Shown: positions 1-25,901 of the stretch, piece after piece
How positions within the stretch are numbered: the stretch's first letter is position 1
How the letters are laid out: each line of letters opens with the position of its first letter
Virus record (IMG/VR): IMGVR_UViG_2874956758_000001
DNA: 35,721 nucleotides
Strand: one strand, 5' to 3'
From: a virus
Taxonomy: Duplodnaviria; Heunggongvirae; Uroviricota; Caudoviricetes
Position numbers and translations under genes: made by a program
The notes under the pieces: generated by a model
Database searches by the model: none
Told to the model about the DNA's origin: nothing
Seen by the model: only the letters and a program-made list of their open reading frames with translations

Positions 1-396
1 TTAAGGGACACAGCCTAAATCACGATTGATACTCGAAGGTTTAATACCCTGACTTCTTCGGGTGGCGCAGTACTGGCTGATAAGCGATTTCGTAATTTGA
101 AATGCGCATGGGTCATTCGTTATTTTTGTGAAGATTTCAATTTTTCCAAGATTAGATCTCCCATGCTCTTCGTGTTTACCCTTTAAATCCCACCAGATCT
201 GTGTCAGCTCCGACAGACGTCGCTTGTCTGTTGGTTTTGATAGCCATTCTTTATTGTGGTGGTTGTACAACGTGTATTTCTCGAAAGCGACAGCTTCGCT
301 TTTCTTATCAAACTTCCTACGGATGCGTTTTCCATTACGTCCAGTAGGGCGGATGTCCACTTCATATCGACCATCATCGAGTTTTTTGATTGCCAT
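1..396 (-). CDS. int: Phage integrase (tyrosine recombinase), N-terminal part only; gene continues beyond the left edge of the window
   Basis: ORF reads off the window start on the minus strand; N-terminus MAIKKLDDGRYEVDIRPTGRNGKRIRRKF resembles the P2 Int arm-binding region; sits immediately next to the C repressor as in P2. Confidence 0.8.
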   Translation of the reverse strand: MAIKKLDDGRYEVDIRPTGRNGKRIRRKFDKKSEAVAFEKYTLYNHHNKEWLSKPTDKRRLSELTQIWWDLKGKHEEHGRSNLGKIEIFTKITNDPCAFQITKSLISQYCATRRSQGIKPSSINRDLGCVP

Positions 397-511: not shown

Positions 512-811
512 TTAACCAGTCTTTTGACCGGAGTGGGGCGACGTTGTTTCGTTTTGCCCAAAGTGTGCGAGAGCGGGCGCAATTTGCCCGGACTCAGGAG
601 CGATCTGATTGGTCATGAACCATAAAGTGTATTTGGTGAATTGTGGGGTCTGCAGGATGTTCATCATGACATCTGTTGGAGGTGTTGAACGACCACTTTC
701 ATAGTAACTCAGCGTGCCATACGGAACCCCTGTTAAATCAGCAAGTTGTTGTCTGCTCAAATACTCTGATTTTCGCATTAAGACTATCTTCTCGCTTATC
801 GTGTTTGACAT
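512..811 (-). CDS. C: P2-type immunity repressor C (HTH)
   Basis: 99 aa, the size of P2 C; HTH segment QQLADLTGVPYGTLSYYESG; divergent from cox across a short control region. Confidence 0.85.
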   Translation of the reverse strand: MSNTISEKIVLMRKSEYLSRQQLADLTGVPYGTLSYYESGRSTPPTDVMMNILQTPQFTKYTLWFMTNQIAPESGQIAPALAHFGQNETTSPHSGQKTG

Positions 812-814
812 AGT

Positions 815-844
815 GTTTAGATCTCAATAGTATCTAGTTTAGAT
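815..844. promoter_or_regulatory. Candidate C-repressor operator: direct repeat GTTTAGAT at 815-822 and 837-844 (22 bp centre to centre) in the C/cox divergent promoter region
   Basis: Direct 8-bp repeats seen in sequence between divergent C and cox; P2 C operators are direct repeats flanking the early promoter. Exact operator bounds are inferred. Confidence 0.45.
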
Positions 845-925
845 GTAGATTGTTTAGTGCTTGGATGTGGGCACTAAAAGGCATTATAAGGCATTAAACG
901 CAATTCATGAGGGCTAGAGGACGAC

Positions 926-1201
926 ATGAGCAAGCAAGTAACACTTATGACTGATGCGATTCCTTATCAGGAGTTCGCAAAACTAATAGGAAAATCGACA
1001 GGAGCGGTTCGTCGGATGATCGATAAAGGAAAGTTGCCTGTAATTGATATGACCGATCCACAATCAGCTTCAGGTCGTGCTGGTGAATATTGGGTATACC
1101 TTCCGGCATGGAATAACGGACTAAAACTGGCTTATGAAAGCCGCCCTAAAGAAATTCGTGACGGCTGGTTAATGTGGTTAGGTCTCGGTGAACCACGTTA
1201 A
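926..1201 (+). CDS. cox: Cox excisionase / transcriptional regulator
   Basis: 91 aa, the size of P2 Cox; first gene of the early rightward operon opposite C. Confidence 0.85.
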   Translation: MSKQVTLMTDAIPYQEFAKLIGKSTGAVRRMIDKGKLPVIDMTDPQSASGRAGEYWVYLPAWNNGLKLAYESRPKEIRDGWLMWLGLGEPR

Positions 1202-1211
1202 GGAGAACCGT

Positions 1212-1382
1212 ATGAATGAGCCGCGTTGTATTGCTCAGTTATTGCGTAACGAAAGCCCCAGGGCGATTGACTTCACCATCACCCACGGTAAGGGGCGTAA
1301 GGGAATCATTATCCGCACCAAAAAACAGAGTCCGTTAAAGAAGGCTCTGACCTTTCTGAAAAGCCGGAGGGTCTGGAAATGA
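1212..1382 (+). CDS. Small early-operon hypothetical protein (position of P2 orf78)
   Basis: ATG at 1212 preceded by AAGGAG; the ORF-track start at 1188 lacks a ribosome-binding site. Function unknown. Confidence 0.45.
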   Translation: MNEPRCIAQLLRNESPRAIDFTITHGKGRKGIIIRTKKQSPLKKALTFLKSRRVWK

Positions 1383-1879
1383 CAGTGATGACGCTTAATC
1401 TCGTTGAAAAACAGCCAGCAGCTATGCGCCGGATAATTGGTAAGCATCTGGCCGTCCCTCGCTGGCAGGAGACATGTGATTATTATAATCAGATGATGGA
1501 GCGCGAACGGCTAACAGTTTGCTTTCATGCGCAGTTAAAACAGCGTCACGCAACGATGCGTTTTGAAGAAATGAACGACGTCGAACGTGAACGGCTGGTT
1601 TGTGCAATTGATGAATTGCGTGGGGCATTCTCAAAACGCCGTCAGGTCGGTGCAAGTGAGTATGCATATATTAGCTTTTTAACTGTCAGTCAGCGCCGTA
1701 CTTTATTTATGCACGCACGACTGACAGAAAAAGAATTTAACCAGCCATACTGGCGAATTAATGAAGAATCATGTTACTGGCGTGAAGCTTTATTCCGTGC
1801 ATTACGTGAATTATTCAGCCTGTTTGAGTATGCACCGACAATTCTGACGTCGGTAAAACCAGAGCAATATCTGCATTAA
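1379..1879 (+). CDS. B: Replication protein B (helicase-loader-like)
   Basis: 166 aa, the size and position of P2 B. Confidence 0.8.
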   Translation: MTVMTLNLVEKQPAAMRRIIGKHLAVPRWQETCDYYNQMMERERLTVCFHAQLKQRHATMRFEEMNDVERERLVCAIDELRGAFSKRRQVGASEYAYISFLTVSQRRTLFMHARLTEKEFNQPYWRINEESCYWREALFRALRELFSLFEYAPTILTSVKPEQYLH

Positions 1880-1942
1880 GTAATTAACCAGAGTTTTTAA
1901 CGCACTTAATCGTGCGGGGCTTCTTTTTGCCTGGAGAAAGTT

Positions 1943-2167
1943 ATGCATACAGTTTCTGAAAATCAGTGCGGTAAATACGCATTACTGCTGCAACAGGCCA
2001 GAACCGAAGCACAGGCCGACGCTGCGACGCGCTTTTCTTCTCATCTTGACGCCATGATTCGCCACATCACAAAGGCGGAGTTATCCCGCGTGGAGATAGT
2101 CGAGCTGCTCAGTCAGGAGTCGGAAAAATTTCACAATATCGGATTGTCTCGCGGGGAGGTGCTTTGA
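1943..2167 (+). CDS. Early-operon hypothetical protein (P2 orf80 position)
   Basis: 74-aa ORF in the early operon, translationally coupled to the next ORF. Confidence 0.5.
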
Positions 2168-2469
2168 TGTCCTGTCCTCGTTCAGTTGTATTACTGAATA
2201 ACGCCTTAAAAATCGCCGTTATGGAAAATGGTGATTTGTCTCTTATTCAACTTTGTCTTGATAAAGAAAAACGCGACATAACTGAATCTGTTATCGCGAT
2301 TTATCAGAACGAATTAAACCTCCTGTCTGATGTGGTCAATTTACTTGTGAAACGCGCTGTATTCCACAAGCAAATCTCCTCCGAGGATGAACTGACGAAA
2401 TTAACGACAGAAATCGCCAGCTATTGCGCTGATGAATTTAAGAAACTGAACGACAAAAGGAGCTGGTGA
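2164..2469 (+). CDS. Early-operon hypothetical protein (P2 orf81 position)
   Basis: 101-aa ORF overlapping its neighbours by 4 nt at both ends. Confidence 0.5.
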
Positions 2470-2693
2470 TGCCGGATAACGTAGATTTTATTCAGGAACA
2501 ACAGGCTGAATTACTGGAGCGCCAGATTAACGCGGCAAGGGGGAAACATTGCGGTGTTTCTGCGCTGGTTTGCGAAGAGTGTGACGCGCCAATACCTACT
2601 GCGCGTCGTGCGGCTTATCCGTCAGCCACGCGTTGTGTTTCCTGTCAGTCAGTCTTTGAAGCAAAAAACAAGCATTACCGGAGAATGGCATGA
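2466..2693 (+). CDS. Small C4 zinc-finger protein, TraR/DksA-like (P2 orf82 position)
   Basis: Two Cys pairs, CEECDAPIP and CVSCQ, in a 75-aa protein. Confidence 0.6.
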   Translation: MMPDNVDFIQEQQAELLERQINAARGKHCGVSALVCEECDAPIPTARRAAYPSATRCVSCQSVFEAKNKHYRRMA

Positions 2694-2965
2694 GTATTCG
2701 TATCGAAATTGGTGAACGTTATGTCGTTACCAGTGACAGCTTTCAGTTTATTCTCCACGAGAAAAAGAGAGCGGAAAGCGGTAAAAACGCCGGTCAGGAA
2801 TGGCTGGCGGTGGTTGGTTATTACCCGAAATTAATCCAGCTCGTTTCCGGCCTGATGCATCACGATATTCTGACCGGAAGCGCAAAGTCTTTTGCTGATT
2901 TAAACGCGCAGGTTGAGCAACTCAGCAAGCGTTGCTCAGAGGCTTTTGGCTCATATGGCCGTTAA
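2690..2965 (+). CDS. Early-operon hypothetical protein (P2 orf83 position)
   Basis: 91-aa ORF overlapping the start of gene A. Confidence 0.5.
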   Translation: MSIRIEIGERYVVTSDSFQFILHEKKRAESGKNAGQEWLAVVGYYPKLIQLVSGLMHHDILTGSAKSFADLNAQVEQLSKRCSEAFGSYGR

Positions 2966-5231
2966 AGCCTCCGGGCGTTTTGTCCCTCCGTCAGCATTTG
3001 CCGCAGGCATCGGTAAGATGTTTACCGGTGCTTATGCATGGAACGCACCACGCGAGGCTGTCGGGCGCGAAAGACCTCTTACACGTGATGAGATGCGTCA
3101 GGTGCAAGGTGTTTTATCCACGATTAACCGCCTGCCTTACTTTTTGCGCTCGCTGTTTACTTCACGCTATGACTACATCAGGCGCAATAAAAGCCCGGTG
3201 CACGGGTTTTATTTCCTCACATCCACTTTTCAGCGTCGTTTATGGCCGCGCATTGAGCGCGTGAATCAGCGCCATGAAATGAACACCGATGCGTCGTTGC
3301 TGTTTCTGGCAGAGCGCGACCAGTATGCGCGCCTGCCGGGAATGAATGACAAGGAGCTGAAAAAGTTTGCTGCCCGTATCTCATCGCAGCTTTTCATGAT
3401 GTATGAGGAACTCTGCGATGCCTGGGTGGATGCGCATGGCGAGAAAGAATCGCTGTTTACGGATGAGGCGCAGGCTCACCTCTATGGTCATGTTGCTGGC
3501 GCTGCACGTGCTTTCAATATTTCCCCTCTCTACTGGAAAAAATACCGTAAAGGACAGATGACCACGAGGCAGGCATATTCTGCCATTGCCCGTCTGTTTA
3601 ACGATGAGTGGTGGACTCATCAGCTTAAAGGCCAGCGTATGCGCTGGCATGAGGCGTTACTGATAGCTGTCGGGGAGGTCAATAAAGACCGTTCTCCTTA
3701 TGCCAGTAAACATGCCATTCGGGATGTGCGTGCGCGCCGCCAGGCAAATCTGGAATTTCTTAAATCGTGTGACCTTGAAAACAGGGAAACCGGCGAGCGC
3801 ATCGACCTTATCAGTAAGGTGATGGGCAGTATTTCTAATCCTGAAATTCGCCGGATGGAGCTGATGAACACCATTGCCGGTATTGAGCGTTACGCCCCCT
3901 CAGAGGGTGATGTGGGGATGTTTATCACGCTTACCGCGCCGTCAAAGTATCACCCGACACGTCAGGTTGGAAAAGGCGAAAATAAAACCGTCCAGCTTAA
4001 TCACGGCTGGAATGATGAGGCATTTAATCCAAAGGATGCGCAGCGTTATCTCTGCCGTATCTGGAGCCTGATGCGCACGGCATTCAAGGATAATGATTTA
4101 CAGGTCTACGGTTTGCGAGTCGTCGAGCCACACCACGACGGAACGCCGCACTGGCATATGATGCTTTTTTGTAATCCACGCCAGCGTAACCAGATTATCG
4201 AAATCATGCATCGCTATGCGCTCAAAGAGGATGGCGACGAAAGAGGAGCCGCGCGAAACCGTTTTCAGGCAAAACACCTTAACCGGGGCGGTGCTGCGGG
4301 ATATATCGCGAAATACATTTCAAAAAATATCGACGGCTATGCACTGGATGGTCAGCTCGATAACGATACCGGCAGACCGCTGAAAGATACTGCGGCGGCT
4401 GTTACCGCATGGGCGTCAACGTGGCGCATCCCGCAATTTAAAACGGTTGGCCTGCCGACAATGGGAGCTTACCGTGAGCTACGTAAATTGCCTCGCGGCG
4501 TCAGCATTGCTGATGAATTTGACGAACGCGTGGAGGCTGCACGCGCCGCCGCAGACAGTGGCGATTTTGCGCTGTATATCAGCGCGCAGGGCGGGGCAAA
4601 TGTCCCGCGCGATTGTCAGACTGTCAGGGTCGCCCGTAGCCCGTCGGATGACGTTAACGAATACGAGGAAGAAGTCGAGAGAGTGGTCGGCATTTACGCG
4701 CCGCATCTCGGCGCGCGTCATATTCATATCACCAGAACGACGGACTGGCGCATTGTGCCGAAAGTGCCGGTCGTTGAACCTTTGACTTTAAAAAGCGGCA
4801 TCGCCGCGCCTCGGAGTCCTGTGAATAACTGTGGAAAGCTCACCGGTGGTGATACTTCGTTACCGGCTCCCACACCTTCTGAGCACGCCGCAGCAGTGCT
4901 TAATCTGATTGATGACGGTGTTATCGAATGGAATGAGCCGGAGGTCGTGAAGGCGCTCCGGGGCGCATTAAAACACGGGCTGAGAACGCCAAACCGTCAG
5001 CAAAGAAACGGAAGCACGTTAAAACCACATGAAATTGCACCATCGGCCAGACTGAGCCGGTCGGAACGATTGCAAATCACCCGTATCCGCGTTGACCTTG
5101 CTCAGAATGGAATCTTGCCCCAGCGATGGGAGCTTGAGGCGCTGGCGCGTGGGGCAACCGTAAATTATGACGGGAAACAATTCACGTATCTGGCTGCTGA
5201 TGAGTGGCCGGGATTCTCAACAAACATATAA
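2955..5231 (+). CDS. A: Replication initiator A (rolling-circle HUH endonuclease)
   Basis: About 758 aa from ATG 2955 (MAVKASG); the ORF is open from 2913. HUH motif PHWHMMLF present; size and position match P2 gpA. Confidence 0.88.
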   Translation: MAVKASGRFVPPSAFAAGIGKMFTGAYAWNAPREAVGRERPLTRDEMRQVQGVLSTINRLPYFLRSLFTSRYDYIRRNKSPVHGFYFLTSTFQRRLWPRIERVNQRHEMNTDASLLFLAERDQYARLPGMNDKELKKFAARISSQLFMMYEELCDAWVDAHGEKESLFTDEAQAHLYGHVAGAARAFNISPLYWKKYRKGQMTTRQAYSAIARLFNDEWWTHQLKGQRMRWHEALLIAVGEVNKDRSPYASKHAIRDVRARRQANLEFLKSCDLENRETGERIDLISKVMGSISNPEIRRMELMNTIAGIERYAPSEGDVGMFITLTAPSKYHPTRQVGKGENKTVQLNHGWNDEAFNPKDAQRYLCRIWSLMRTAFKDNDLQVYGLRVVEPHHDGTPHWHMMLFCNPRQRNQIIEIMHRYALKEDGDERGAARNRFQAKHLNRGGAAGYIAKYISKNIDGYALDGQLDNDTGRPLKDTAAAVTAWASTWRIPQFKTVGLPTMGAYRELRKLPRGVSIADEFDERVEAARAAADSGDFALYISAQGGANVPRDCQTVRVARSPSDDVNEYEEEVERVVGIYAPHLGARHIHITRTTDWRIVPKVPVVEPLTLKSGIAAPRSPVNNCGKLTGGDTSLPAPTPSEHAAAVLNLIDDGVIEWNEPEVVKALRGALKHGLRTPNRQQRNGSTLKPHEIAPSARLSRSERLQITRIRVDLAQNGILPQRWELEALARGATVNYDGKQFTYLAADEWPGFSTNI

Positions 5232-5620: not shown

Positions 5621-5873
5621 GAACAACGAGCTTGCGAGGCGTTAGGGATGTCGAAATTTCATATGACTGTTCGCTTTAATGCTTAACGAAGTCATGTTGA
5701 GTTAATAACATTGTTTCGTTAAGCGCTGTGTTCCTTGTCGAATAAGTTCACTTCTTCTGGTGTAATATCAGTATCCATTTCTTCGAATGCATCTAAATCC
5801 ACAATTTTTGTTTTTTTCAAAATTGATAGTATTTTCTGTTTGTTTTTATTTTTGGCTGAACCCGGAATCCACT

Positions 5874-6311
5874 CTACATCCCACAGGCCATCAATGGTAA
5901 ATGTTTTTTTTCCTTGAGTTCATCATTTATGCGTTGACATAGGGCTGTTTTGTAATCGCCTTCCCATTGTGTGTGTATCTTCCCTTGAACTCGTTGAAAC
6001 CAAATATCTAACATTTCAGTATTTGGTTGTTTACCTAGTTTACAATGAAGTTGTTGTAACTTGCCAAATTTGAGTTCATCGTCGTCATAAAGGAAGGTCA
6101 AGAGTTTTGCGAAAATAGCCATTCCCACTGGGTAGGTGGTTGGGTTTTTAGCCATGATGCTTGAAACAATTCCAAGCATTGCATCTAGTTGATGCCCACT
6201 ATTTGTGATCTTTTTCTTCCTAAATAATTTTCGCAAGAAACCATTTAAATATCTGACTGTAATTTTGGAGTTTTGATGTTTTAAAGAAAATAAATATATT
6301 GCATACAACAT
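5874..6311 (-). CDS. C-terminal fragment of the Abi-P2-like reverse transcriptase (helical C-terminal domain); frame continues from the upstream RT ORF across an A-run
   Basis: AT-rich 145-aa ORF; its frame is open upstream into the end of the RT ORF, and a third frame continues past its stop to about 5727. Confidence 0.55.
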   Translation of the reverse strand: MLYAIYLFSLKHQNSKITVRYLNGFLRKLFRKKKITNSGHQLDAMLGIVSSIMAKNPTTYPVGMAIFAKLLTFLYDDDELKFGKLQQLHCKLGKQPNTEMLDIWFQRVQGKIHTQWEGDYKTALCQRINDELKEKKHLPLMACGM

Positions 6312-6337
6312 TTTCTGTAGGGAGTTGAACGACCCTT

Positions 6338-7264
6338 CTATAATATATTCTTTTTTGCTGATTTAAGGGAGTGAAGAATGATGTCGTCATGTAGTTCTGT
6401 TTTTCTTGAGTTTAAATCAAGCCCAAACTCACCTAAGACCTCAACCAAACACTTTGAGATTTTGTCCAAATCATCTTTACTGCTTGAAAATATTCGATAA
6501 TCATCTCTGTAGCGAACTACTTTGTAATCCGTTATTTTTTGCTCTTCGGTTTTTTTTCTTAGCTGTAAATCAATTTCGCCTAAAATTAATTCGGCAAATG
6601 TATCCATCAACGTACTACCCAATGGTATTCCGTTTGTCTGATTACTCATCATCATCTGGATATGAGTGTCAATCAATCGTCCTGGGTTATTGTTATTTTC
6701 TTTCTTTTTGGCCTCTTCTTTTGAGATGAATACCCATTCAAAGCTATGAGTGTAAATAGAAGGGTAGAAGTTTGAAATGTCTGTGCTGAACATGAACTCA
6801 TACTCAAGAGCCAATGAAAGACTTTTTTGTTCAAAATCTTCCCACCAGTTTAAAACAGATGCAGCTACGTTTGAGGTGTTCTTTTTGCTCACTGGGGTAC
6901 TTGAGCATAAAAAAAGATCATTAGACTCAAACTCTCTAAATTTATTCCTTATAGCATTCCAGTTGGAAGGGGATGTAATAAGTTTACAAAAATACACGTA
7001 GTACAGAGGATTAATTAGTGTTATTCGTCGCCAGCTATATAAGCCATCTTTGCTGACTAAAACCTCGTAATTTATATTCTTCCCCATCAATGACTTGGAG
7101 TCAGGTTGGAAGTTGATTTTACCTTCATCTATCGCGGAGTTGATTTCTTCAAGCAAGGAAGAAAAATCGACATAACTGGGTAGCTCCAGAGTAGTGTATG
7201 AATCATGCTGCAGAAAATACTTAAGCGCTCTACCAGTAGTTAATTCATAAATCTTTTTCATAAT
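6338..7264 (-). CDS. Reverse transcriptase, Abi-P2 / UG-Abi class (defence-associated RT), N-terminal and catalytic part
   Basis: RT motifs seen directly: FMFSTDISNFYPSIY, GIPLGSTLMDTF, VVRYRDDYRIF (YxDD), LDLNSRKTEL. Probable start MKKIYEL at 7264; the ORF is open to 7387. AT-rich compared with phage core genes. Confidence 0.75.
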   Translation of the reverse strand: MMKKIYELTTGRALKYFLQHDSYTTLELPSYVDFSSLLEEINSAIDEGKINFQPDSKSLMGKNINYEVLVSKDGLYSWRRITLINPLYYVYFCKLITSPSNWNAIRNKFREFESNDLFLCSSTPVSKKNTSNVAASVLNWWEDFEQKSLSLALEYEFMFSTDISNFYPSIYTHSFEWVFISKEEAKKKENNNNPGRLIDTHIQMMMSNQTNGIPLGSTLMDTFAELILGEIDLQLRKKTEEQKITDYKVVRYRDDYRIFSSSKDDLDKISKCLVEVLGEFGLDLNSRKTELHDDIILHSLKSAKKNIL

Positions 7265-7655: not shown

Positions 7656-8690
7656 TCAGCCGTTGTCAGTGTCCAGTGAGTAGTTTTTAAAGCGGATGAC
7701 CTCCTGACCGAGCCAGCCGTTTATTTCCCGAATCCTGTCCTGTAACGGGATAAGCTCATTGCGGACAAAGACCTTTGCCACTTTCTCAATATCACCCAGC
7801 GACCCGACGTTCTCCGGCTTGCCGCCCATCAACTGAAAGGGGATGCGGTGCGCGTCCAGCAGGTCAGCGGCGCTGGCTTTTTTGATATTAAAAAAATCGT
7901 CCTTCGTTGCCACTTCACTGAGTGGGATAATTTTAATGCCGTCGGCTTTCCCCTGTGGGGCATAGAGAAACAGGTTTTTAAAGTTGTTGCGGCCTTTCGA
8001 CTTCACCATGTTTTCGCGGAGCATTTCGATATCGTTGCGATCCTGCACGGCATCGGTGACGTACATGATGTATCCGGCATGTGCGCCGTTTTCGTAATAC
8101 TTGCGGCGGAACAGCGTGGCTGATTCATTCAGCCAGGCAGAGTTAAGGGCGCTGAGATATTCCGGCAGGCCGTACAGCTCCTGATTGATATCCGGCTCCA
8201 GCAGGTGAAACACGGAGCCGGGCGTGAAAGGTGTTGGCTCGTTGAAGGACGGCACCCACCAGTAAATATCTTCTTCCACACCACGGCGGGTATATTTTGC
8301 CGGTGAGGTTTCCAGTCTGATGACCTTACCGGTGGTGCTGTAACGCTTTTCCAGAAACGCATTACCGAACACCAGAAAATCCAGCACAAAGCGGCTGAAA
8401 TCCTGCTGGGAAAGCCACGGATGCGGGATAAATGTCGAGGCCAGAATATTACGTTTGACGTAAATCGGGGAGCTGTGATGCACGGCAGCACGCAGGCTTT
8501 TTGCCAGACCGGTAAAGCTGACCGGTGGCTCATACCATCTGCCGTTACTGATGCACTCGACGTAATCCAGAATGTCACGGCGATCGAGTACCGGCACCGG
8601 CTCACCAAAGGTGAATGCCTCCATTTTCGGGGCGCTGGCGGTCATTGTTTTTGCCGCTGGTCGCGGTGTTTTCCCTTTTTTCTTGCTCAT
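7656..8690 (-). CDS. Q: Portal protein
   Basis: 344 aa, the size and position of P2 gpQ next to cos and upstream of P. Confidence 0.88.
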   Translation of the reverse strand: MSKKKGKTPRPAAKTMTASAPKMEAFTFGEPVPVLDRRDILDYVECISNGRWYEPPVSFTGLAKSLRAAVHHSSPIYVKRNILASTFIPHPWLSQQDFSRFVLDFLVFGNAFLEKRYSTTGKVIRLETSPAKYTRRGVEEDIYWWVPSFNEPTPFTPGSVFHLLEPDINQELYGLPEYLSALNSAWLNESATLFRRKYYENGAHAGYIMYVTDAVQDRNDIEMLRENMVKSKGRNNFKNLFLYAPQGKADGIKIIPLSEVATKDDFFNIKKASAADLLDAHRIPFQLMGGKPENVGSLGDIEKVAKVFVRNELIPLQDRIREINGWLGQEVIRFKNYSLDTDNG

Positions 8691-9208
8691 CAGTAAAACT
8701 CCAGAATGGTGGATGTCAGCGGAGTGCTGATACCGGCGGTGAGTGGCTCATTTAACAGGGCGTGCATGGTCGCCCAGGCGAGGTCGGCGTGGCTGGCTTC
8801 CTCGCTGCGGCTGGCCTCATAGGTGGCGCTGCGTCCGCTGCTGGTCATGGTCTTGCGGATAGCCATAAACGAGCTGGTGATGTCGGTGGCGCTGACGTCA
8901 TATTCCAGACAGCCACGGCGGATAACGTCTTTTGCCTTGAGCACCATTGCGGTTTTCATTTCCGGCGTGTAGCGGATATCGCGAGCGGCGGGATAGAACG
9001 AGCGCACGAGCTGGAACACACCGACACCGAGGCCGGTGGCATCAATCCCGATGTATTCGACGTTGTATTTTTCGGTGAGTTTGCGGATGGATTCTGCCTG
9101 GGTGGCAAAGTCCATGCCTTTCCACTGGTGACGCTCAAGTATTCTGAATTTGCCACCGGCCACCACCGGCGGTGCCAGCACCACGCATCCGGCGCATAGT
9201 CTTCCCAT
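8690..9208 (-). CDS. P: Terminase large subunit gpP, C-terminal (nuclease domain) portion, in a different frame from the N-terminal portion
   Basis: This frame reads GKFRILERHQWKGMDFATQAESIRKLTEKYNVEYIGIDATGLGVG; it overlaps the N-terminal ORF, whose translation degenerates into low-complexity sequence in the overlap. Confidence 0.7.
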   Translation of the reverse strand: MGRLCAGCVVLAPPVVAGGKFRILERHQWKGMDFATQAESIRKLTEKYNVEYIGIDATGLGVGVFQLVRSFYPAARDIRYTPEMKTAMVLKAKDVIRRGCLEYDVSATDITSSFMAIRKTMTSSGRSATYEASRSEEASHADLAWATMHALLNEPLTAGISTPLTSTILEFY

Positions 9209-10389
9209 TCTTCCAGCGTGTCGACCATGCAGCGTTGCAGCTCCTCGAACGGGAACACCGATGCCTTGTCGTCAACAAATTCACACATGAACAGGTTTTT
9301 AAAATCGTCGGCGCTGTTTTCGCGTTTGAGCTGCTCAATGTCGAACAGCGTGCAGCCGCCTTTCAGGGCGTCCTCAATGGTGACAATCTGCCGCCACTGG
9401 CCGTCTGCACAGAGAAGACCTCCGGCAAGGGCGTTATGACTGACGTCGATTTCCACGCGTTCGGCGGCGCTGGCGCGTCCCCGGTTGAACAGTTCACCCG
9501 ACCAGAACGGGTAGGCGTCGTGCGCCAGCGTGGACGGGGTGGAGAAATAGGTCGAGCGCAGGTGACTCTGTGAGGCCATACCTGATGCCACCTTACGCAG
9601 TACCTGAAAATTCGGGATCCAGAAAATCTCATCGACGTAAAGGTCGCCGTTATGGCTCTGTGCGGTGTTGGAGTTGGTGCCGAGAAAAATCAGTTTTGCG
9701 CCGTTATTGCCCAGGACAATCGGGTCACCGGTCAGGTCAACGTCAACCAGCCGGGCAAAGGCGATGATGTATTCACGGAACACATACGCCTGCGTTTTAC
9801 TGGCCGACAGAAAAATCTGGTTATGACCTGTTTTCAGGGCGCGCAGCAGCGCCTCGCGGGAAAAATAAAACGTTGCGCCAATCTGGCGGGATTTCAGGAT
9901 ATCGCGGATGCGGTGCTCAAGCCCGGCGCGATACCAGTGCAACTGATAGTCGAAAGACTGCTCAAAGAAAATCTGCTCCAGCTTTTCGATGGCCTCGTCA
10001 CTGAAAAAATTCTTTTTCGGTTTGCGCCGCCCGCCTTTGTTGCGGTTAGCGACGTTCGGATTAAGGTCTGCCTCGTTGCCGGTCTGACTGTAACGGTTTA
10101 CCCGTGCCAGTCGTTCAATCTGGCGTCCCAGCAGGTCAATTTCCTTGAAGTCACCGCCGGTTTTCTGCGGTTTGATGATGAGCTGGGTCAGTCGTGCTTC
10201 CAGACTCATTTCGACACGGCTGATGGGGGCAACGCTGTCCCAGCCGTCGCGCTGTTTCCAGCTCTGCACCGTCGGGCGTTTCATCTGCAACATGGCGGCA
10301 ATCTGCGGCACGGAAAACCCCTGCCAGTACAGCAGCGCCGCCTGACGACGCGGGTCGTGTAAAAGAGTGGTGTCTGTGGTGATGGTCAT
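8956..10389 (-). CDS. P: Terminase large subunit gpP (ATPase), N-terminal portion; frame lost near 9165-9195
   Basis: Probable start MTITTD at 10389 with GAGGT ribosome-binding site. Protein-like up to WEDYAPDA, then WCWHRRWW and Pro/Ser-rich nonsense. Combined span 8690-10389 is about 566 codons, against roughly 590 aa recalled for P2 gpP. Confidence 0.75.
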   Translation of the reverse strand: MTITTDTTLLHDPRRQAALLYWQGFSVPQIAAMLQMKRPTVQSWKQRDGWDSVAPISRVEMSLEARLTQLIIKPQKTGGDFKEIDLLGRQIERLARVNRYSQTGNEADLNPNVANRNKGGRRKPKKNFFSDEAIEKLEQIFFEQSFDYQLHWYRAGLEHRIRDILKSRQIGATFYFSREALLRALKTGHNQIFLSASKTQAYVFREYIIAFARLVDVDLTGDPIVLGNNGAKLIFLGTNSNTAQSHNGDLYVDEIFWIPNFQVLRKVASGMASQSHLRSTYFSTPSTLAHDAYPFWSGELFNRGRASAAERVEIDVSHNALAGGLLCADGQWRQIVTIEDALKGGCTLFDIEQLKRENSADDFKNLFMCEFVDDKASVFPFEELQRCMVDTLEEWEDYAPDAWCWHRRWWPVANSEYLSVTSGKAWTLPPRQNPSANSPKNTTSNTSGLMPPASVSVCSSSCARSIPPLAISATRRK

Positions 10390-10562
10390 GAATACCTCGC
10401 CGTGATGAATACACGGCAAGGCTACTGAGTCGCGCCCTGCGATTCGCTAAGGTGCTGTTGTGTCAGTGATAAGCCATCCGGGACTGATGGCGGAGGATGC
10501 GCATCGTCGGGAAACTGATGCCGACATGTGACTCCTCTAATCACTATTCAGGACTCCTGACA

Positions 10563-15888: not shown

Positions 15889-16318
15889 TGCCGTCACGGT
15901 GCTGAAAACTAACCCCGATATGCTGCGGATATTCGTGGATAACGGGAGTATTGCCTCCACACTGGCGGCGTCGCTGTCATTCGAAAAGCGTTACACGCTC
16001 AATGTGATTGTGACCGACTTTACCGGTAATTTTGACCTGCTCATCGTGCCGGTGCTGGTGTGGCTGCGGGAAAATCAGCCCGACATCATGACCACCGACG
16101 AAGGTCAGAAAAAAGGTTTCACGTTTTATGCAGACATCAACAATGACAGCAGCTTTGATATCAGCATCAGCCTGATGCTGACCGAGCGAACGCTGGTCAG
16201 TGAGGTTGACGGTGCGCTGCATGTGAAGAATATCCCGGAACCTCCGACGCCGGAGCCAGTCAATCGCCCGATGGAGCTTTATATCAATGGTGAACTGGTG
16301 AGCAAGTGGGATGAATGA
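15851..16318 (+). CDS. R: Tail completion protein R
   Basis: 155 aa, the size and position of P2 gpR. Confidence 0.8.
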   Translation: MLKPDSLRRALTDAVTVLKTNPDMLRIFVDNGSIASTLAASLSFEKRYTLNVIVTDFTGNFDLLIVPVLVWLRENQPDIMTTDEGQKKGFTFYADINNDSSFDISISLMLTERTLVSEVDGALHVKNIPEPPTPEPVNRPMELYINGELVSKWDE

Positions 16319-16517
16319 GTTTAAGCGTTTTGAAGACCGGCTGACCGGACTGATTGAATCGCTGTCACCGTCTGGGCGTCGGCGACTGAGTGCAGAACTG
16401 GCGAAACGTCTGCGGCAGAGTCAGCAGCGTCGGGTGATGGCACAGAAAGCCCCGGACGGCACACCCTACGCACCACGCCAGCAGCAGAGCGCCAGAAAAA
16501 AAGACCGGTCGCGTTAA
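16311..16517 (+). CDS. S: Tail completion protein S, N-terminal portion; frame breaks at an A7 run near 16494-16500
   Basis: 68-aa ORF ending ...SARKKDRSR; removing one A from the run would read ARKKTGRVKRKMFAKLITS and join the next ORF. Combined span 16311-16764 is about 150 codons, the size of P2 gpS. Confidence 0.7.
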   Translation: MNEFKRFEDRLTGLIESLSPSGRRRLSAELAKRLRQSQQRRVMAQKAPDGTPYAPRQQQSARKKDRSR

Positions 16518-16524
16518 GCGAAAA

Positions 16525-16764
16525 ATGTTTGCGAAACTTATCACCAGTCGTTTTTTGCATATCCGCGCCAGCCCTGAACAGGCATCAATGGAGTTTTACG
16601 GCGGGAAGTCACCGAAAATCGCCAGTGTGCATCAGTTCGGTCTGTCGGAAGAAACCCGGAAAGACGGTAAGAAAAATGATTATCCGGCGCGTCCTCTGCT
16701 CGGCTTTACCGGTGAGGATGTGCAGATAATTGAAGAGATTATCCTGGCTCACCTCGACCGTTAG
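16525..16764 (+). CDS. S: Tail completion protein S, C-terminal portion
   Basis: 79-aa ORF in the frame that the upstream S fragment would enter after a 1-nt change in the A-run. Confidence 0.7.
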   Translation: MFAKLITSRFLHIRASPEQASMEFYGGKSPKIASVHQFGLSEETRKDGKKNDYPARPLLGFTGEDVQIIEEIILAHLDR

Positions 16765-19256: not shown

Positions 19257-21446
19257 ATGAGCACAAAATTCAAAACCGTTATCACCACTGCCGGTGCAGC
19301 AAAGCTGGCAGCGGCAACCGCACCGGGAGGGCGGAAGGTCAACATTACCACGATGGCCGTCGGGGATGGCGGTGGTAAATTGCCTGTCCCGGATGCCGGA
19401 CAGACCGGGCTTATCCACGAAGTCTGGCGACATACGCTGAACAAAATCAGCCAGGACAAACGAAACAGTAATTATATTATCGCAGAGCTGGTTATTCCGC
19501 CGGAGGTGGGCGGTTTCTGGATGCGTGAGCTTGGCCTGTACGATGATGCGGGAACATTAATTGCCGTGGCGAACATGGCCGAAAGTTATAAGCCAGCTCT
19601 TGCCGAAGGCTCAGGGCGTTCGCAGACCTGTCGCATGGTCATCATCGTCAGCAGTGTGGCCTCAGTGGCGCTGACCATTGACACCACAACGGTGATGGCG
19701 ACGCAGGATTACGTTGATGACAAAATTGCAGAGCATGAACAGTCACGACGTCACCCGGACGCCTCGCTGACCGCAAAAGGTTTTACTCAGTTAAGCAGTG
19801 CGACCAACAGCACGTCTGAAACACTGGCCGCAACGCCGAAAGCGGTAAAGGCCGCCTATGACCTGGCTAACGGGAAATATACCGCACAGGACGCCACCAC
19901 AGCGCGAAAAGGTCTTGTCCAGCTCAGTAGCGTCACCAACAGTGATTCTGAAACGCTGGCTGCAACGCCAAAGGCGGTAAAGGCTGCGTATGACCTTGCT
20001 AACGGGAAATACACTGCACAGGATGCCACCACGGCGCGAAAAGGGCTTGTCCAGCTCAGTAGCGCCACCAACAGTGATTCTGAAACGCTGGCCGCAACAC
20101 CAAAAGCGGTGAAGTCTGCCTATGACAATGCTGAAAAACGTCTTCAGAAAGATCAGAATGGTGCGGATATTCCGGGAAAGGATACCTTCACGAAAAATAT
20201 CGGTGCCTGTCGTGCTTATAGCGGCGCTTTGAGCACTGAAGCCGGAAACTGGACAACCGCTCAGTTTATTGAATGGCTGGATTCCCGTGGTGCATTTAAT
20301 CATCCGTACTGGATGTGCAAAGGCTCCTGGTCATATGCAAATAACAAAATCATTACGGATACCGGATGTGGTGATATCCACCTGGCTGGTTGTGTCGTCG
20401 AGGTCATGGGAACTAAATCTGCAATCACTATCCGAGTGACCACGCCGACAACATCAAGCGGTGGCGGTACAACCAGCGCGCAATTCACTTACATTAATCA
20501 TGGGGACGGCTACTCCCCCGGCTGGCGTCGTGACTGGAATCGTCAGGGCGACTCAATGACCGGAACGATTAATCAGGATGGCGGAAGCCAGAATGCCTAT
20601 ATGTCTACGGCCTTATGTTCAGGCACCAGAGGCGGCAAAAAATATCTCAGAAAGTTTCGTGGTGGAGAAGGAGACACTATCTGGCATGAAACAGTACAGG
20701 GCGGGGTAGTTCGCTGGGCGACTGGTAATACTGATGCTCAGGAAGAATTATCACTCAGCTCCGCTTATGGTCTCCGTTCAAGAGGTGAGATTACATCAAG
20801 CAGTGCTAATGGTCTGCGCATTGCTTATGGCAATTATGGATTCTTTATCAGGAATGATGGCAGCAGCACTTATTTTATGTTGACTAAATCAGGTGACAGA
20901 TTAGGTACTTATAATAATTTAAGACCACTGATTATAAATGATGCCACGGGTGCTGTATCAATGGGGCATGGCCTGAGTGTTACTGGTGATATTGTCTCAA
21001 GTACCAAAGTACGTGCCGGTAGCGGGAAAAAGTTCACGGTCAGCAGCAGCAATACATCCACGAAGGAAGCTGCATTCAATTTGTGGGGAAACTCAAGTCG
21101 TCCGGTGGTGGCTGAATTAGGTGATGATGCAGGCTGGCATTTTTACAGTCAGAGAAATACAGATAACAGCATCACTTTTGCTGTTAACGGGCAGGTATCA
21201 CCATCTAACTATAGTAATTTTGATTCACGCTATGTCCGGGATATCCGGCTTGGTGGTGCTGCCACATACAAACCTGCGAACAATGGCATGACATGGACAC
21301 ATAAGGCACCGTCCGGGTGTGTATATTCCGGCATTATTGTTCAGGATACCGGCTCAAACTCTGCCGATAACATTGGTGGCGTATATTACAGACCGGTGCA
21401 GAAATACATTAACGGGACTTGGTATAACGGTAAGCGTACAGCCTGA
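19257..21446 (+). CDS. H: Tail fibre protein H, with internal tandem repeats and a C-terminus altered by IS66 insertion
   Basis: 729 aa; the N-terminal region is typical of P2-type fibres; the last codons (GKRTA, stop) lie inside the IS66 left inverted repeat. Confidence 0.85.
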   Translation: MSTKFKTVITTAGAAKLAAATAPGGRKVNITTMAVGDGGGKLPVPDAGQTGLIHEVWRHTLNKISQDKRNSNYIIAELVIPPEVGGFWMRELGLYDDAGTLIAVANMAESYKPALAEGSGRSQTCRMVIIVSSVASVALTIDTTTVMATQDYVDDKIAEHEQSRRHPDASLTAKGFTQLSSATNSTSETLAATPKAVKAAYDLANGKYTAQDATTARKGLVQLSSVTNSDSETLAATPKAVKAAYDLANGKYTAQDATTARKGLVQLSSATNSDSETLAATPKAVKSAYDNAEKRLQKDQNGADIPGKDTFTKNIGACRAYSGALSTEAGNWTTAQFIEWLDSRGAFNHPYWMCKGSWSYANNKIITDTGCGDIHLAGCVVEVMGTKSAITIRVTTPTTSSGGGTTSAQFTYINHGDGYSPGWRRDWNRQGDSMTGTINQDGGSQNAYMSTALCSGTRGGKKYLRKFRGGEGDTIWHETVQGGVVRWATGNTDAQEELSLSSAYGLRSRGEITSSSANGLRIAYGNYGFFIRNDGSSTYFMLTKSGDRLGTYNNLRPLIINDATGAVSMGHGLSVTGDIVSSTKVRAGSGKKFTVSSSNTSTKEAAFNLWGNSSRPVVAELGDDAGWHFYSQRNTDNSITFAVNGQVSPSNYSNFDSRYVRDIRLGGAATYKPANNGMTWTHKAPSGCVYSGIIVQDTGSNSADNIGGVYYRPVQKYINGTWYNGKRTA
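19775..20135 (+). repeat. About three tandem copies of a ~120-bp (40 aa) unit inside H (motif SETLAATPKAVKAAYDLANGKYTAQDATTARKGLVQLSS)
   Basis: Near-identical protein and DNA repeats seen directly; this is a common phage tail-fibre repeat motif. Confidence 0.8.
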
Positions 21447-21499
21447 ACCGTCTGGTCAGAATCTGACGAATTAGACAAAGTGGTGTCCACCAATAAGTA

Positions 21500-21901
21500 G
21501 TGGGAACCAAAGTGTCAGATATGCAGAAAAATGTGACTCCCGGCAGGCGAAAAGGCTGCCCTAATTATCCTCCCGAATTTAAACAGCAGCTCGTTGCTGC
21601 CTCCTGTGAACCCGGGATATCCATCTCAAAACTTGCTCTTGAAAATGGCATTAACGCCAATCTGTTGTTCAAATGGCGACAACAATGGCGCGAGGGAAAG
21701 CTGCTATTACCTTCTTCAGAGAGCCCCCAGCTACTTCCTGTGACTCTCGATGCAGCTGCCGAACAGCCAGAATCGCTCGCAGAGGACCCGGAAACCCTCA
21801 GTATCAGCTGTGAGGTAACGTTCCGGCACGGGACGCTCCGCTTCAATGGCAATGTCAGCGAAAAGCTCCTGACTCTGCTGATACAGGAACTGAAGCGATG
21901 A
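21500..21901 (+). CDS. tnpA: IS66-family accessory protein TnpA (HTH)
   Basis: 133-aa first ORF of the element; exact start uncertain. Confidence 0.7.
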   Translation: MGTKVSDMQKNVTPGRRKGCPNYPPEFKQQLVAASCEPGISISKLALENGINANLLFKWRQQWREGKLLLPSSESPQLLPVTLDAAAEQPESLAEDPETLSISCEVTFRHGTLRFNGNVSEKLLTLLIQELKR

Positions 21902-22245
21902 TCCCGTTACCTTCCGGGACCAAAATTTGGCTGGTTGCCGGTATCACCGATATGAGAAATGGCTTCAACGGTCTGGCTGCGAAAGTACAGACGGCGCTGA
22001 AAGACGATCCCATGTCCGGCCATGTTTTCATTTTCCGGGGCCGCAGCGGCAGTCAGGTTAAACTGCTGTGGTCCACCGGTGACGGACTGTGCCTCCTGAC
22101 CAAACGGCTGGAGCGTGGGCGCTTCGCCTGGCCGTCAGCCCGTGATGGCAAAGTGTTCCTTACGCAGGCGCAGCTGGCGATGCTGCTGGAAGGTATCGAC
22201 TGGCGACAGCCTAAGCGGCTGCTGACCTCCCTGACCATGCTGTAA
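21898..22245 (+). CDS. tnpB: IS66-family Orf2 / TnpB
   Basis: 115 aa; start overlaps the tnpA stop; conserved IS66 Orf2-like sequence ([11 protein letters not shown]...[24 protein letters not shown]). Confidence 0.8.
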
Positions 22246-22294
22246 ATCTCTTTATCCTGGTTGTCACAGAATAAGCCCGGTAAAATACGGGCTT

Positions 22295-23827
22295 ATGAAC
22301 GACATCTCTTCTGACGACATCTTCCTGCTGAAACAGCGCCTGGCCGAACAGGAGATCCACGCCCTGCAGGAAAAGCTGAGCAACCGGGAGCGCGAAATAG
22401 ACCATCTGCAGGCGCAGCTGGATAAACTCCGCCGGATGAACTTCGGCAGTCGTTCCGAAAAAGTCTCCCGCCGTATCGCACAAATGGAAGCCGATCTGAA
22501 CCGGCTTCAGAAAGAGAGCGATACGCTGACTGGTAGGGTGTATGACCCGGCAGTACAGCGTCCGTTGCGTCAGACCCGCACCCGTAAGCCGTTCCCTGAA
22601 TCACTACCCCGTGACGAAAAGCGACTGTTGCCTGCGGCGCCGTGCTGCCCGAACTGCGGCGGTTCACTGAGCTATCTGGGCGAGGATACCGCCGAACAGC
22701 TGGAGTTGATGCGTAGTGCCTTCCGGGTTATCCGGACGGTACGGGAAAAACATGCCTGTACTCAGTGCGATGCCATCGTGCAGGCACCTGCACCTTCGCG
22801 GCCCATCGAGCGGGGTATCGCCGGACCGGGGCTGCTGGCCCGCGTGCTGACCTCGAAGTATGCAGAGCACACCCCGCTGTATCGCCAGTCAGAAATATAC
22901 GGCCGGCAAGGTGTGAAGCTGAGCCGTTCACTGCTGTCGGGCTGGGTGGATGCATGCTGCCGGCTGCTGTCTCCGCTGGAAGAGGCGCTTCATGGCTATG
23001 TCATGACTGACGGCAAACTCCATGCTGATGATACCCCGGTCCAGGTACTGATGCCGGGTAATAAGAAGACGAAGACCGGGCGGTTGTGGGCGTATGTTCG
23101 TGATGACCGCAATGCCGGGTCAGCGTTGGCACCTGCAGTGTGGTTCGCTTACAGCCCGGACAGAAAAGGCATCCATCCGCAGACTCATCTTGCTTGCTTC
23201 AGCGGTGTGCTGCAAGCGGATGCGTACGCCGGGTTCAACGAGCTGTACCGCAATGGTGGGATAACGGAAGCTGCCTGCTGGGCTCATGCCCGCCGAAAGA
23301 TCCACGATGTGCACGTCCGCATCCCGTCAGCACTGACGGAAGAAGCCCTGGAGCAGCTCGGTCAGTTGTACGCCATAGAGGCGGATATAAGGGGAATGCC
23401 GGCAGAGCAGCGGCTTGCTGAACGTCAGCGAAAAACGAAACCGCTGTTGAAATCCCTGGAAAGCTGGTTGCGTGAAAAGATGAAGACCCTGTCGCGACAC
23501 TCAGAGTTGGCGAAGGCGTTCGCGTACGCACTTAACCAGTGGCCGGCACTGACGTACTATGCGAACGATGGCTGGGTGGAAATCGACAACAACATCGCTG
23601 AAAATGCCCTGCGGGCGGTCAGTCTGGGTCGTAAAAACTTCCTGTTCTTCGGCTCTGACCATGGTGGTGAGCGGGGAGCGCTACTGTACAGCCTGATCGG
23701 GACGTGCAAACTGAATGACGTGGATCCAGAAAGCTACCTTCGCCATGTGCTTGGCGTCATAGCAGACTGGCCGGTCAACCGGGTCAGCGAACTGCTTCCG
23801 TGGCGCATAGCACTGCCAGCTGAATAA
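22295..23827 (+). CDS. tnpC: IS66-family transposase TnpC
   Basis: 510 aa; N-terminal coiled coil, Cys cluster (CPNCG...CTQC), DDE-type core; ends just inside the right inverted repeat. Confidence 0.85.
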
Positions 23828-23889
23828 CACATCCCCGTCAATACGGCCCTCGCTGTACGCTTACGTATAACGTGGCGCAGGTATAATTT

Positions 23890-24417: not shown

Positions 24418-24509
24418 GTTGTATGAGCTTACATATCTATTGCGTAGAGTAAAGCATAATCTGACAGTCCGCTCTGTGCCAGAAGCGGACATAGCAGGTG
24501 GATTTGCCC

Positions 24510-25415
24510 CTATATTTCCAGACATCTGTTATCACTTAACCCATTACAAGCCCGCTGCCGCAGATATTCCCGTGGCGAGCGATAACCCAGCGCACTATGC
24601 GGATGCCATTCGTTATAATGCTCGAACGCCTCTGCAAGGTTCTTTGCTGCCGTTAACCCGTCTGGTTTGGGCATGATACTGATGTAGTCACGCTTTATCG
24701 TTTTCACGAAGCTCTCTGCTATTCCGTTACTCTCCGGACTCCGCACCGCCGTGTTCTTCGGTTCAAGTCCCAACATCCGGGCGAACTGGCGTGTTTCATT
24801 AGCCCGGTAGCATGAACCATTATCCGTCAGCCACTCCACTGGAGACGACGGAAGATCGTTGCCGAAGCGGCGTTCCACCGCTCCCAGCATGACGTCCTGT
24901 ACTGTTTCACTGTTGAAGCCGCCGGTAGTCACCGCCCAGTGCAGTGCCTCACGATCACAGCAGTCCAGCGCGAACGTGACACGCAGTCTCTCTCCGTTAT
25001 CACAGCAGAACTCGAACCCGTCAGAGCACCATCGCTGATTGCTTTCTTTCACGGCCACTCTGCCTGTATGTGCCCGTTTCGATGGCGGTACAGCAGGTTT
25101 TCGCTCAAGCAACAGCGCATTCTGGCGCATGATCCGGTAAACACGTTTGGCATTGATCGCAGGCATACCATCAAGTTCTGCCTGTCTGCGAAGCAGCGCC
25201 CATACCCGACGATAACCATACGTGGGCAGCTCTCCGATAACATGGTGTATACGGAGAAGCACATCCGTATCATCAGTGTGACGACTGCGGCGGCCATCCA
25301 TCCAGTCATCGGTTCGTCTGAGAATGACGTGCAACTGCGCACGCGACACCCGGAGACAACGGCTGACTAAGCTTACTCCCCATCCCCGGGCAATAAGGGC
25401 GCGTGCGCTATCCAC
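24510..25415 (-). CDS. insD: IS2 transposase OrfB (DDE integrase-like); expressed as an InsCD fusion by -1 frameshift
   Basis: 301 aa, recognised as IS2 InsD. Confidence 0.9.
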
Positions 25416-25738
25416 TTTTTTGCCCGTCCATATTCAACGGCTTCTTTGAGGAGTTCATTTTCCATCGTTTTCTTGCCGAGCAGGCGCTGGAGTTCTTTAA
25501 TCTGCTTCATGGCGGCAGCAAGTTGAGAGGCAGGAACAACCTGTTCTCCGGCGGCCACAGCAGTAAGACTTCCTTCCTGGTATTGCTTACGCCAGAGAAA
25601 TAACTGGCTGGCTGCTACACCATGTTGCCGGGCAACGAGGGAGACCGTCATCCCCGGTTCAAAGCTCTGCTGAACAATTGCGATCTTTTCCTGTGTGGTA
25701 CGCCGTCTGCGTTTCTCCGGCCCTAAGACATCAATCAT
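25373..25738 (-). CDS. insC: IS2 OrfA (HTH regulator)
   Basis: 121 aa from [13 protein letters not shown]; overlaps the insD start. Confidence 0.9.
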
Positions 25739-25901
25739 CTGTTCTCCAATGACTAGTCTAAAAACTAGTATTAAGACTATCACTTATTTAAGTGATACTG
25801 GTTGTCTGGAGATTCAGGGGGCCAGTCTAGCAGGTGCCAGATGCATTTGTTATTCTTCATTGAATTGAGCAGTATCCTTAACAGGAACTCTGAATACATA
25901 A

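Follow-up and report, generated by a model that had tools for sequence, protein, structure and literature searches.

A 73-bp deletion between short direct repeats very probably accounts for the broken large terminase gene of a P2-like prophage of Shigella dysenteriae

The large terminase gene P of a P2-like prophage of Shigella dysenteriae is broken, and it is very probably a pseudogene that arose by one single deletion of 73 bp between two GCGCCG repeats in a prophage that is decaying. We analyzed a window of 35,721 nucleotides (the whole stretch of DNA under study), in which gene P lies on the minus strand at positions 8690-10389 and can be read in one frame up to ...WEDYAP, with the remainder in a second frame. 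An earlier note on this DNA had recognized a P2-type large terminase gene split across two frames at this place, and both the identity of the gene and its disruption stand (ORF listing, tblastn with gpP, and Pfam). The same note blamed a one-base change for the split, but alignment with intact P genes shows a 73-nt deletion between GCGCCG repeats instead.

The ORF listing gives an ORF of 487 amino acids (aa) at 8956-10419 on the minus strand (477 aa when counted from the true ATG at 10389), whose translation contains ...LEEWEDYAPDAWCWHRRWW..., and an ORF of 172 aa at 8690-9208 on the minus strand that begins MGRLCAGCVVLAPPVVAGGKFRILE and encloses the 3' part of gene P. When we searched the window by tblastn, residues 1-402 of P2 gpP matched frame -1 at 10389-9184 with 99.8% identity and residues 424-590 matched frame -3 at 9193-8693 with 100% identity (98-100% for both pieces). 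Pfam profiles matched the two pieces at E-values of 1e-27 to 1e-60: Terminase_5 (PF06056; E 1.7e-27) covers residues 12-69 of the N-terminal fragment, the gpP-type HTH, and Terminase_6N (PF03237; E 3e-60) covers residues 164-386 of the same fragment, the ATPase, while the Terminase_6C match on the C-terminal piece covers profile positions 14-154 only. The Walker A (SRQIGAT) and Walker B (LYVDE) motifs of the ATPase align with SRQLGKT and IYIDE of T4 gp17 (hhalign). The identity to gpP and the Pfam matches exclude a chance pattern of ORFs and confirm that the two frames represent a real broken gene.

The 5' part of gene P (9190-10389, minus strand) comprises codons 1-400 in their native frame, with the Terminase_5 HTH and the Terminase_6N ATPase. 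It is followed by an out-of-frame tail (8956-9189, minus strand) that translates into 77 non-native residues (DAWCWHRRWWPVANSEY...ATRRK) and a stop codon, giving a truncated product of 477 aa with 400 native residues and a 77-residue nonsense tail. The N-terminal ORF had previously been considered good up to WEDYAPDA, which holds as far as WEDYAP, but the final DA already lies beyond the junction (the native sequence across the break is WEDYAPFAAN). The 3' part (8690-9193, minus strand) lies in the other frame and encodes native residues 424-590 plus the stop codon, which make up the RNase H-like nuclease domain except for its first strand. We do not expect the ATG at 9208 to be the real start of the 172-aa ORF. 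This ATG falls within the native codons for E-W-E and is directly abutted on its upstream side by CTGGAAGA; gene callers choose an 89-aa downstream start in its place (record L006), and our record search found no gene recorded with the 172-aa product. Downstream of P, the portal gene Q is intact (7656-8690, minus strand; tblastn match to P2 gpQ residues 1-343 with 98.5% identity) and its start overlaps the stop of gene P (ATGA) in the same way as in P2, with the divergent genes O-N-M-L upstream (tblastn audit against P2). Directly upstream of this portal gene, the window contains no continuous ORF of around 570-615 aa.

Alignment by MAFFT with the intact P genes of P2, phage 899, and E. coli EcPF40 revealed a single gap of 73 nt in gene P and 18-25 mismatches to those three genes across its other 1700 nt, so that the gene spans 1700 nt in the window versus 1773 nt when intact. 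A 6-bp direct repeat, GCGCCG, is found at both ends of the missing segment (nt 1195-1200 and 1268-1273 of the intact gene, i.e., 73 nt apart from start to start) in the context TAT-GCGCCG-TTTGCC...GCGACA-GCGCCG-GATGCG. The sole remaining copy, at 9190-9195 on the minus strand, marks the deletion junction, which has no filler DNA and reads GACTATGCGCCGGATGCGTGGT over 22 nt. The break had been estimated at 9165-9195 in a GGTGG-rich stretch; the real one sits at the upper edge of this estimate, but the GGTGG-rich stretch itself is unaltered. Since 73 equals 3 x 24 + 1, the two frames are offset by one. Of all 20-300-nt deletions that are possible in gene P, only 0.25% have a microhomology of at least 6 bp, and the 6 bp at this junction thus exceed chance expectation. 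A search of the window did not find the deleted sequence anywhere else in it, and DNA folding of both strands lent no support to a hairpin between the repeats (z = -0.3 and -1.1 versus shuffles). As a side observation, the GCGCCG pair is missing from an automated repeat listing of the intact gene while being visible directly in the sequence. In reads of this region, TTTGCCGCCAATCCGTTCGG would mark presence of the 73 nt.

The deleted codons, about 401-423 or 424, cover six invariant and two near-invariant positions among 14 TerL proteins of Peduoviridae (41-88% identity), and D416 and D422 are two of the six invariant residues that are lost. Based on motif, invariance, and spacing, D416 is the predicted equivalent of catalytic D401 of T4 gp17 and D294 of G20c, and motif and spacing suggest that D422 corresponds to the conserved D409 of T4 and D300 of G20c. 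The T4 sequence YIATLD401CSEGRGQD409Y matches VWIGYD416PSHRGD422S of gpP, and the distances to the next catalytic residues are 57 in T4 versus 58 in gpP and then 84 versus 86. In G20c, neither D294 nor D347 nor D429 can be dispensed with, and the conserved D300 is the counterpart of T4 D409 (PMC5389553). The gpP family profile aligns D474, H558, and D560 with D347, H427, and D429 of the G20c TerL nuclease, and these three residues are still encoded in the 3' part of gene P. Both HMM and hhalign alignments ended short of the strand that holds D416: The family profile aligned with T4 gp17 over the ATPase domain only, and a nuclease-only hhalign comparison with T4 gp17 yielded 12 columns at a nonsignificant E-value of 0.33, falling on catalytic E458. 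For structural matches the family profile was required and the single gpP sequence was insufficient, with no terminase match from single-sequence phmmer searches of gpP or its nuclease domain alone against PDB sequences. The best 120 homologous proteins, all at least 88% identical, were too close for a deep profile, and diverse sequences from the phage collection were therefore used. A complete RNase H-like domain with its three catalytic carboxylates (D416, D474, and D560) is not encoded in the window.

The anatomy of the junction suggests a microhomology-mediated deletion, by slipped-strand mispairing in replication or by another route, as the most likely origin of this lesion, which would have kept one copy of GCGCCG with the loss of 73 bp. 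Such an event shifts the reading frame, since 73 cannot be divided by three, and the remaining codons of the nuclease domain would lack a proper start. The missing codons would have provided the initial strand of the RNase H-like nuclease together with D416 and D422. With these catalytic codons lost and the frame shifted, the terminase is predicted to be neither full-length nor able to cleave cos DNA, and a restored frame would probably leave it nonfunctional.

The P deletion is one of several lesions in a prophage under mutational decay. Its int gene is interrupted by an IS, the tail gene S carries a +1 frameshift (A6 to A7), an IS66-family element with an 8-bp TSD sits in H at its 3' end, a further element belongs to the IS3 family, and the AbiP2 reverse transcriptase is doubly frameshifted (A7 to A6 and GGG to GG). 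The prophage is therefore defective (cryptic), with several independent inactivating lesions in essential genes. The earlier claim that it cannot package DNA without P is supported, but the loss of P is not what singly prevents phage production because it is one of at least five inactivating lesions. We view all this as ordinary prophage decay and the P lesion as a known type of event.

The source chromosome (Shigella dysenteriae CP026831.1) carries the same junction, as do the Logan assemblies of SRR364092 and SRR364093, whose independence from CP026831.1 extends only to read set and assembler. Altogether, the exact 477-aa product and the identical junction were found in 8 contigs including these two assemblies, and exact scans did not find the junction in three large collections of genome contigs (which probably cover Shigella only via the E. 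coli species genome), viral contigs, and metagenome contigs. When gene P of the window was used as query, all matches listed from 118 phage and 1,667 E. coli records consisted of two pieces spanning 1773 nt, and the best 30 of 1,535 E. coli records all contain the 73 nt, two of them with 100%-identical flanks. Within the collections scanned, the deletion is confined to one lineage. It is very unlikely that the gap is a sequencing or assembly artefact, created by assembly or consensus calling in a strain whose true gene is intact. One-base homopolymer errors are typical of some long-read platforms, and the one-base homopolymer changes in S and AbiP2 do raise questions about base-level assembly quality. 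However, loss of 73 nt bounded by a 6-bp repeat is atypical of base-calling errors, the lesion recurs in the two Logan assemblies, which were built from separate read sets and with another assembler than the NCBI chromosome, and the frameshift in S is found again in record L005.

Even less probable is an exaptation, i.e., that the truncated HTH and ATPase protein has been kept because it helps the host, for instance by serving as a dominant-negative decoy against superinfecting phages or satellites. Over its 400 N-terminal residues the protein matches gpP at 99.8% identity and retains the HTH and the Walker motifs, and no damage was seen in the upstream Ogr-dependent promoter region, so one could imagine that the 477-aa product is expressed from the late promoter upon infection by a related phage and blocks packaging by P2-like phages or P4-like satellites, though we give this specific scenario equally little credence. 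If it held, a decayed structural gene would have been turned to defense. Nothing points to selection, with the lesion found in one lineage only, and the adjacent defense gene AbiP2 is itself decaying. Furthermore, the late promoter depends on Ogr and phage induction, and the 77-residue nonsense tail would probably destabilize the protein.

We give hardly any weight to a single-base indel in the GGTGG-rich run GCGTGGTGCTGG whose repair would yield a functional terminase of about 567 aa. The two frames are indeed offset by one, and changing GG to GGG results in a stop-free ORF of 566 aa as had been suggested, but the run is wild-type and identical in all three intact reference genes, with 73 nt missing in the alignment rather than one base. 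Intact homologues have 589-590 aa and not 566-567, and the "repaired" product reads ...WEDYAPDAWVLAPP... and is missing FAANPFGSRPVWIGYDPSHRGDSAGC and with it the invariant residues D416 and D422 as well as strand beta1, so that it would not be a working terminase. Similarly far-fetched is a functional two-ORF terminase that either uses a programmed frameshift, for which P2 has an annotated -1 precedent in E/E', or makes ATPase and nuclease as separate subunits, with the extra partial terminase paralogue of phage 186 as a possible parallel: at least 80% of gpP is covered in 471 of 491 phage records and, among the full-length matches listed, all except phage 186 are in one piece; annotations show a single-ORF terminase in P2, 899, EcPF40, and 186 as well as 12 further genera (12 of 12 diverse Peduoviridae); phage 186 has an intact 589-aa terminase beside its paralogue; the two-ORF arrangement is limited to one lineage; any fusion of the two frames would lack around 24 residues including catalytic D416; and the C-terminal fragment has neither a credible start or ribosome-binding site nor the first strand of its fold. 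The homologues show no conserved two-ORF arrangement and a programmed frameshift is without basis; the earlier note had named both as grounds against its own reading.

This locus should therefore be annotated as a gpP pseudogene created by a 73-bp deletion rather than as a sequencing frameshift that calls for correction, and the prophage as defective. Beyond correct annotation, the importance of this finding is small. For genome scans it offers the rule that a one-base offset between frames is not the same as a one-base error and that an intact homologue should be aligned before any repair is proposed, and this S. dysenteriae clone could be recognized by the 73-bp junction as a marker of its lineage.

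Compared to known systems, gene P of the window shares 98.4-98.9% nucleotide identity over its retained 1700 nt with the gene for P2 gpP (590 aa; NC_001895 P2p02) and its E. coli Peduovirus orthologues, as well as the position and orientation of the P-Q operon divergent from O-N-M-L and the Terminase_5, Terminase_6N, and Terminase_6C domains. Unlike the gene for P2 gpP, it lacks 73 nt, is frameshifted, and has lost D416 and D422, which makes it a pseudogene and not a functional orthologue. The gpP family profile matches the nuclease domains of G20c (5M1F) and P74-26 (5TGE) at E-values of about 1e-4, and the DxSxGxxxD motif of gpP corresponds to D401...D409 of T4 gp17. In contrast to these nucleases, the window copy encodes two of the three catalytic positions, with the first carboxylate and its beta-strand deleted. 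Phage 186 resembles the window in having two consecutive terminase-related ORFs (orf12/W) ahead of the portal gene, but we rejected it as a case of a conserved split because the first of these encodes a complete terminase of 589 aa and the other one an extra partial paralogue of 248 aa. Deletions between short direct repeats by replication slippage are a classic class described in E. coli, and the P lesion shares with them a perfect 6-bp repeat of which one copy is kept, a short interval, and the lack of filler DNA, while a hairpin is unsupported. Shigella genomes are rich in IS elements and pseudogenes and known for defective P2-like prophages and pseudogene- or IS-driven decay. With int and H hit by IS elements, S and AbiP2 frameshifted, and P shortened by its deletion, the prophage studied here is a further example of such decayed Shigella prophages.

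The large terminase gene P (8690-10389, minus strand) is broken into two overlapping reading frames, as the earlier note had proposed. Translation of the window yields an N-terminal frame of 477 codons on the minus strand (ATG at 10389, stop at 8956) that encodes sound protein as far as ...LEEWEDYAP and thereafter low-complexity nonsense (DAWCWHRRWWPVANSEY...), as well as a C-terminal frame on the same strand (ATG at 9208 to a stop at 8690) that reads ...AGCVVLAPPVVAGGKFRILERHQWKGMDF... to the end. Both pieces belong to a terminase: A tblastn search with P2 gpP put residues 1-402 in frame -1 of the window at 99.8% identity, and a second, 100% identical match in frame -3 covered residues 424-590; in Pfam, the N-terminal piece matched Terminase_5 and Terminase_6N and the C-terminal piece matched Terminase_6C, starting only at profile position 14.

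When the window's P was compared by megablast with 50,697 phage records and 5,426 complete E. coli genomes, near-identical P genes came up by the hundreds, and each one among the matches listed aligned as two pieces over 1773 nt of the record compared to 1700 nt for the window's copy. Aligning this copy by MAFFT to intact P from P2, phage 899, and E. coli EcPF40 resolved this difference into one 73-nt gap, the sole indel in the window's P. In the intact gene, the hexamer GCGCCG stands on both sides of the missing segment (...GACTAT-GCGCCG-TTTGCCGCC...GGCGACA-GCGCCG-GATGCGTGG...), of which a single copy is left in the window at 9190-9195; the 67-nt core of the deleted segment does not turn up anywhere else in the window. 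Because 73 = 3x24+1, the downstream codons of P fall into another frame, and the loss mimics a one-base frameshift. The lesion had indeed been read as a one-base change in a GGTGG-rich run, but that run and the motif GCGTGGTGCTGG, put forward in the note as the place of the mutation, are wild-type sequence. Inserting one base does produce a stop-free ORF of 566 aa (...WEDYAPDAWVLAPP...), though one that lacks the deleted gpP segment, and the lesion is not correctable in this way since the repeat-mediated deletion of 73 bp takes active-site residues with it.

The gpP stretch removed is AP[FAANPFGSRPVWIGYDPSHRGDS]AG. In 14 large terminases drawn from across the Peduoviridae, which share 41-88% identity with the E. 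coli protein, six positions of this stretch are invariant (P405, V411, W412, Y415, D416, and D422) and two further ones nearly so. The gpP family profile picks up two large terminases, G20c and P74-26, at their nuclease domains, whose structures have been solved (E about 1e-4), and aligns gpP D474, H558, and D560 with G20c D347, H427, and D429, respectively; the first nuclease strand was not covered by these HMM alignments of the gpP family. G20c D300 is conserved among terminases and corresponds to the essential D409 of T4 gp17 (PMC5389553). By motif, T4 YIATL-D401-CSEGRGQ-D409-YHALHII matches gpP VWIGY-D416-PSHRG-D422-SAGCVVLA, and the spacing to the following two catalytic residues is 57 in T4 versus 58 in gpP and 84 versus 86. 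Given this match in motif and spacing, the deletion probably took out the first metal-binding aspartate together with its beta-strand.

Deletions between short direct repeats, which arise by slipped-strand mispairing or related microhomology-mediated repair, typically show a perfect short repeat at both ends, one retained copy, and no filler DNA. The junction in the window's P has a perfect 6-bp repeat at both ends with one copy kept and filler DNA absent. Only 0.25% of the possible 20-300-nt deletions in gene P would show a junction microhomology of 6 bp or more, so that the GCGCCG repeat is unlikely to be coincidental. Slippage between the two GCGCCG copies with retention of one would account for the junction. 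A stabilizing hairpin between the repeats was unsupported when folding was compared to shuffled sequences (z = -0.3 and -1.1).

Records of exactly this 477-aa product exist for 8 contigs, including the 4.88-Mb chromosome CP026831.1 of assembly GCA_002950055.1. Across 20.4 kb, this chromosome matches the window at 100% identity and is thus its source. GCA_002950055.1 is a Shigella dysenteriae genome (PMC9830988). The junction was not found in GTDB contigs (one genome per species), IMG/VR, or JGI metagenomes; all top-ranked E. coli genomes listed keep the 73 nt, two of them with 100% identical flanks, and the intact gpP cluster represents 9,487 member sequences. The deletion is private to a small lineage. 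In a protein collection clustered at 90% identity, the 477-aa product (8959-10389, minus strand) sits in a cluster of 5,341 members, of which the representative and those listed are portal proteins. This looks like a clustering quirk, with the link possibly made by gene calls that fuse P and Q, the 754-aa P0002 being one example.

The window holds a P2-like prophage integrated next to the CyaR sRNA gene and yegQ/trhP. CyaR/RyeE (34192-34277, minus strand; Rfam 100.7 bits) directly follows ogr, and yegQ/trhP (Peptidase_U32; 34360-35721, minus strand) lies beyond it; these genes mark the host side of the right attachment site and place the prophage at the cyaR locus. A gene-by-gene audit against P2 found most prophage genes intact (92-100% identity). 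Two hydrolases are encoded between G and FI, at the Z/fun cargo position (25902-27208, plus strand): one of the NUDIX type, with 212 aa, and one of the HAD family, with 214 aa. The former shows weak similarity to PADLOC candidate PDC-S07 (E 6.6e-10).

Several other genes are damaged. Only residues 1-130 of int (7-396, minus strand) lie in the window, and the gene is interrupted after residue 130 by an insertion sequence (IS) just outside the window's left edge; on the source chromosome (locus L004, 19994-21434), this IS with a 281-aa DDE_Tnp_1/DUF4096 transposase is followed by the catalytic Phage_integrase part. Tail-completion gene S (16311-16763, plus strand) carries a +1 frameshift in an A-run (16496-16502, A7 versus A6 in P2) that puts residues 1-64 and 63-150 into different frames, and gene calling in the independent assembly of SRR364092 likewise splits S into two ORFs of 58 and 68 aa. 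An IS66-family element of 2,435 bp (21430-23864, plus strand; three ORFs of 133, 115, and 510 aa; terminal inverted repeats GTAAGCG.../...CGCTTAC) is flanked by a perfect 8-bp target duplication, GTATAACG, at 21422-21429 and 23865-23872; it hit the last four codons of tail-fiber gene H (...WYNVAQV* to ...WYNGKRTA*) and leaves H and G 2.4 kb apart. Between G and the cargo genes lies an IS3-family (IS2-like) element (about 24507-25820; 301-aa rve-domain ORF on the minus strand) with imperfect inverted repeats of 33 nt. The AbiP2-type defense reverse transcriptase at the P2 old/tin cargo position (5722-7261, minus strand; PADLOC E 1.7e-120) is spread over three frames by two one-base deletions (A7 to A6 near 6356 and GGG to GG near 5913) and is otherwise 99.3% identical to its reference, phage pro147 ORF33. 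Since these lesions of int, S, H, and AbiP2 and the IS3-family element join the deletion in P, the prophage is multiply defective. The Shigella lineage is marked by IS expansion and the accumulation of pseudogenes, and the loss of P is one episode of the ordinary prophage decay expected there.

Three other readings of the split were weighed against such decay. Judged on assemblies, a one-off assembly artifact is unlikely, because the identical junction appears in two others of the 8 contigs, which are Logan assemblies of SRR364092 and SRR364093, two separate read sets. Within the limits of sequence evidence, a programmed frameshift or a functional two-part terminase is excluded: gpP was covered to at least 80% in 471 of 491 phage records, terminase is a single ORF upstream of the portal gene in all 12 diverse Peduoviridae examined, and the C-terminal fragment of P lacks a credible start, and its 172-aa ORF is recorded by no gene caller. 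That the ATPase-only fragment has been re-used as a dominant-negative anti-phage factor is very improbable. Among the full-length matches listed, all were in one piece save phage 186, which we rejected as an exception to the one-piece terminase. Unlike the split P of the window, its terminase orf12 is complete (589 aa), and the additional 248-aa ORF between terminase and portal ('W, similar to Orf12') is a partial terminase paralogue; the two lie at 601-3116 of NC_001317.1. The lesion in gene P follows known biology throughout, with no departure from it.
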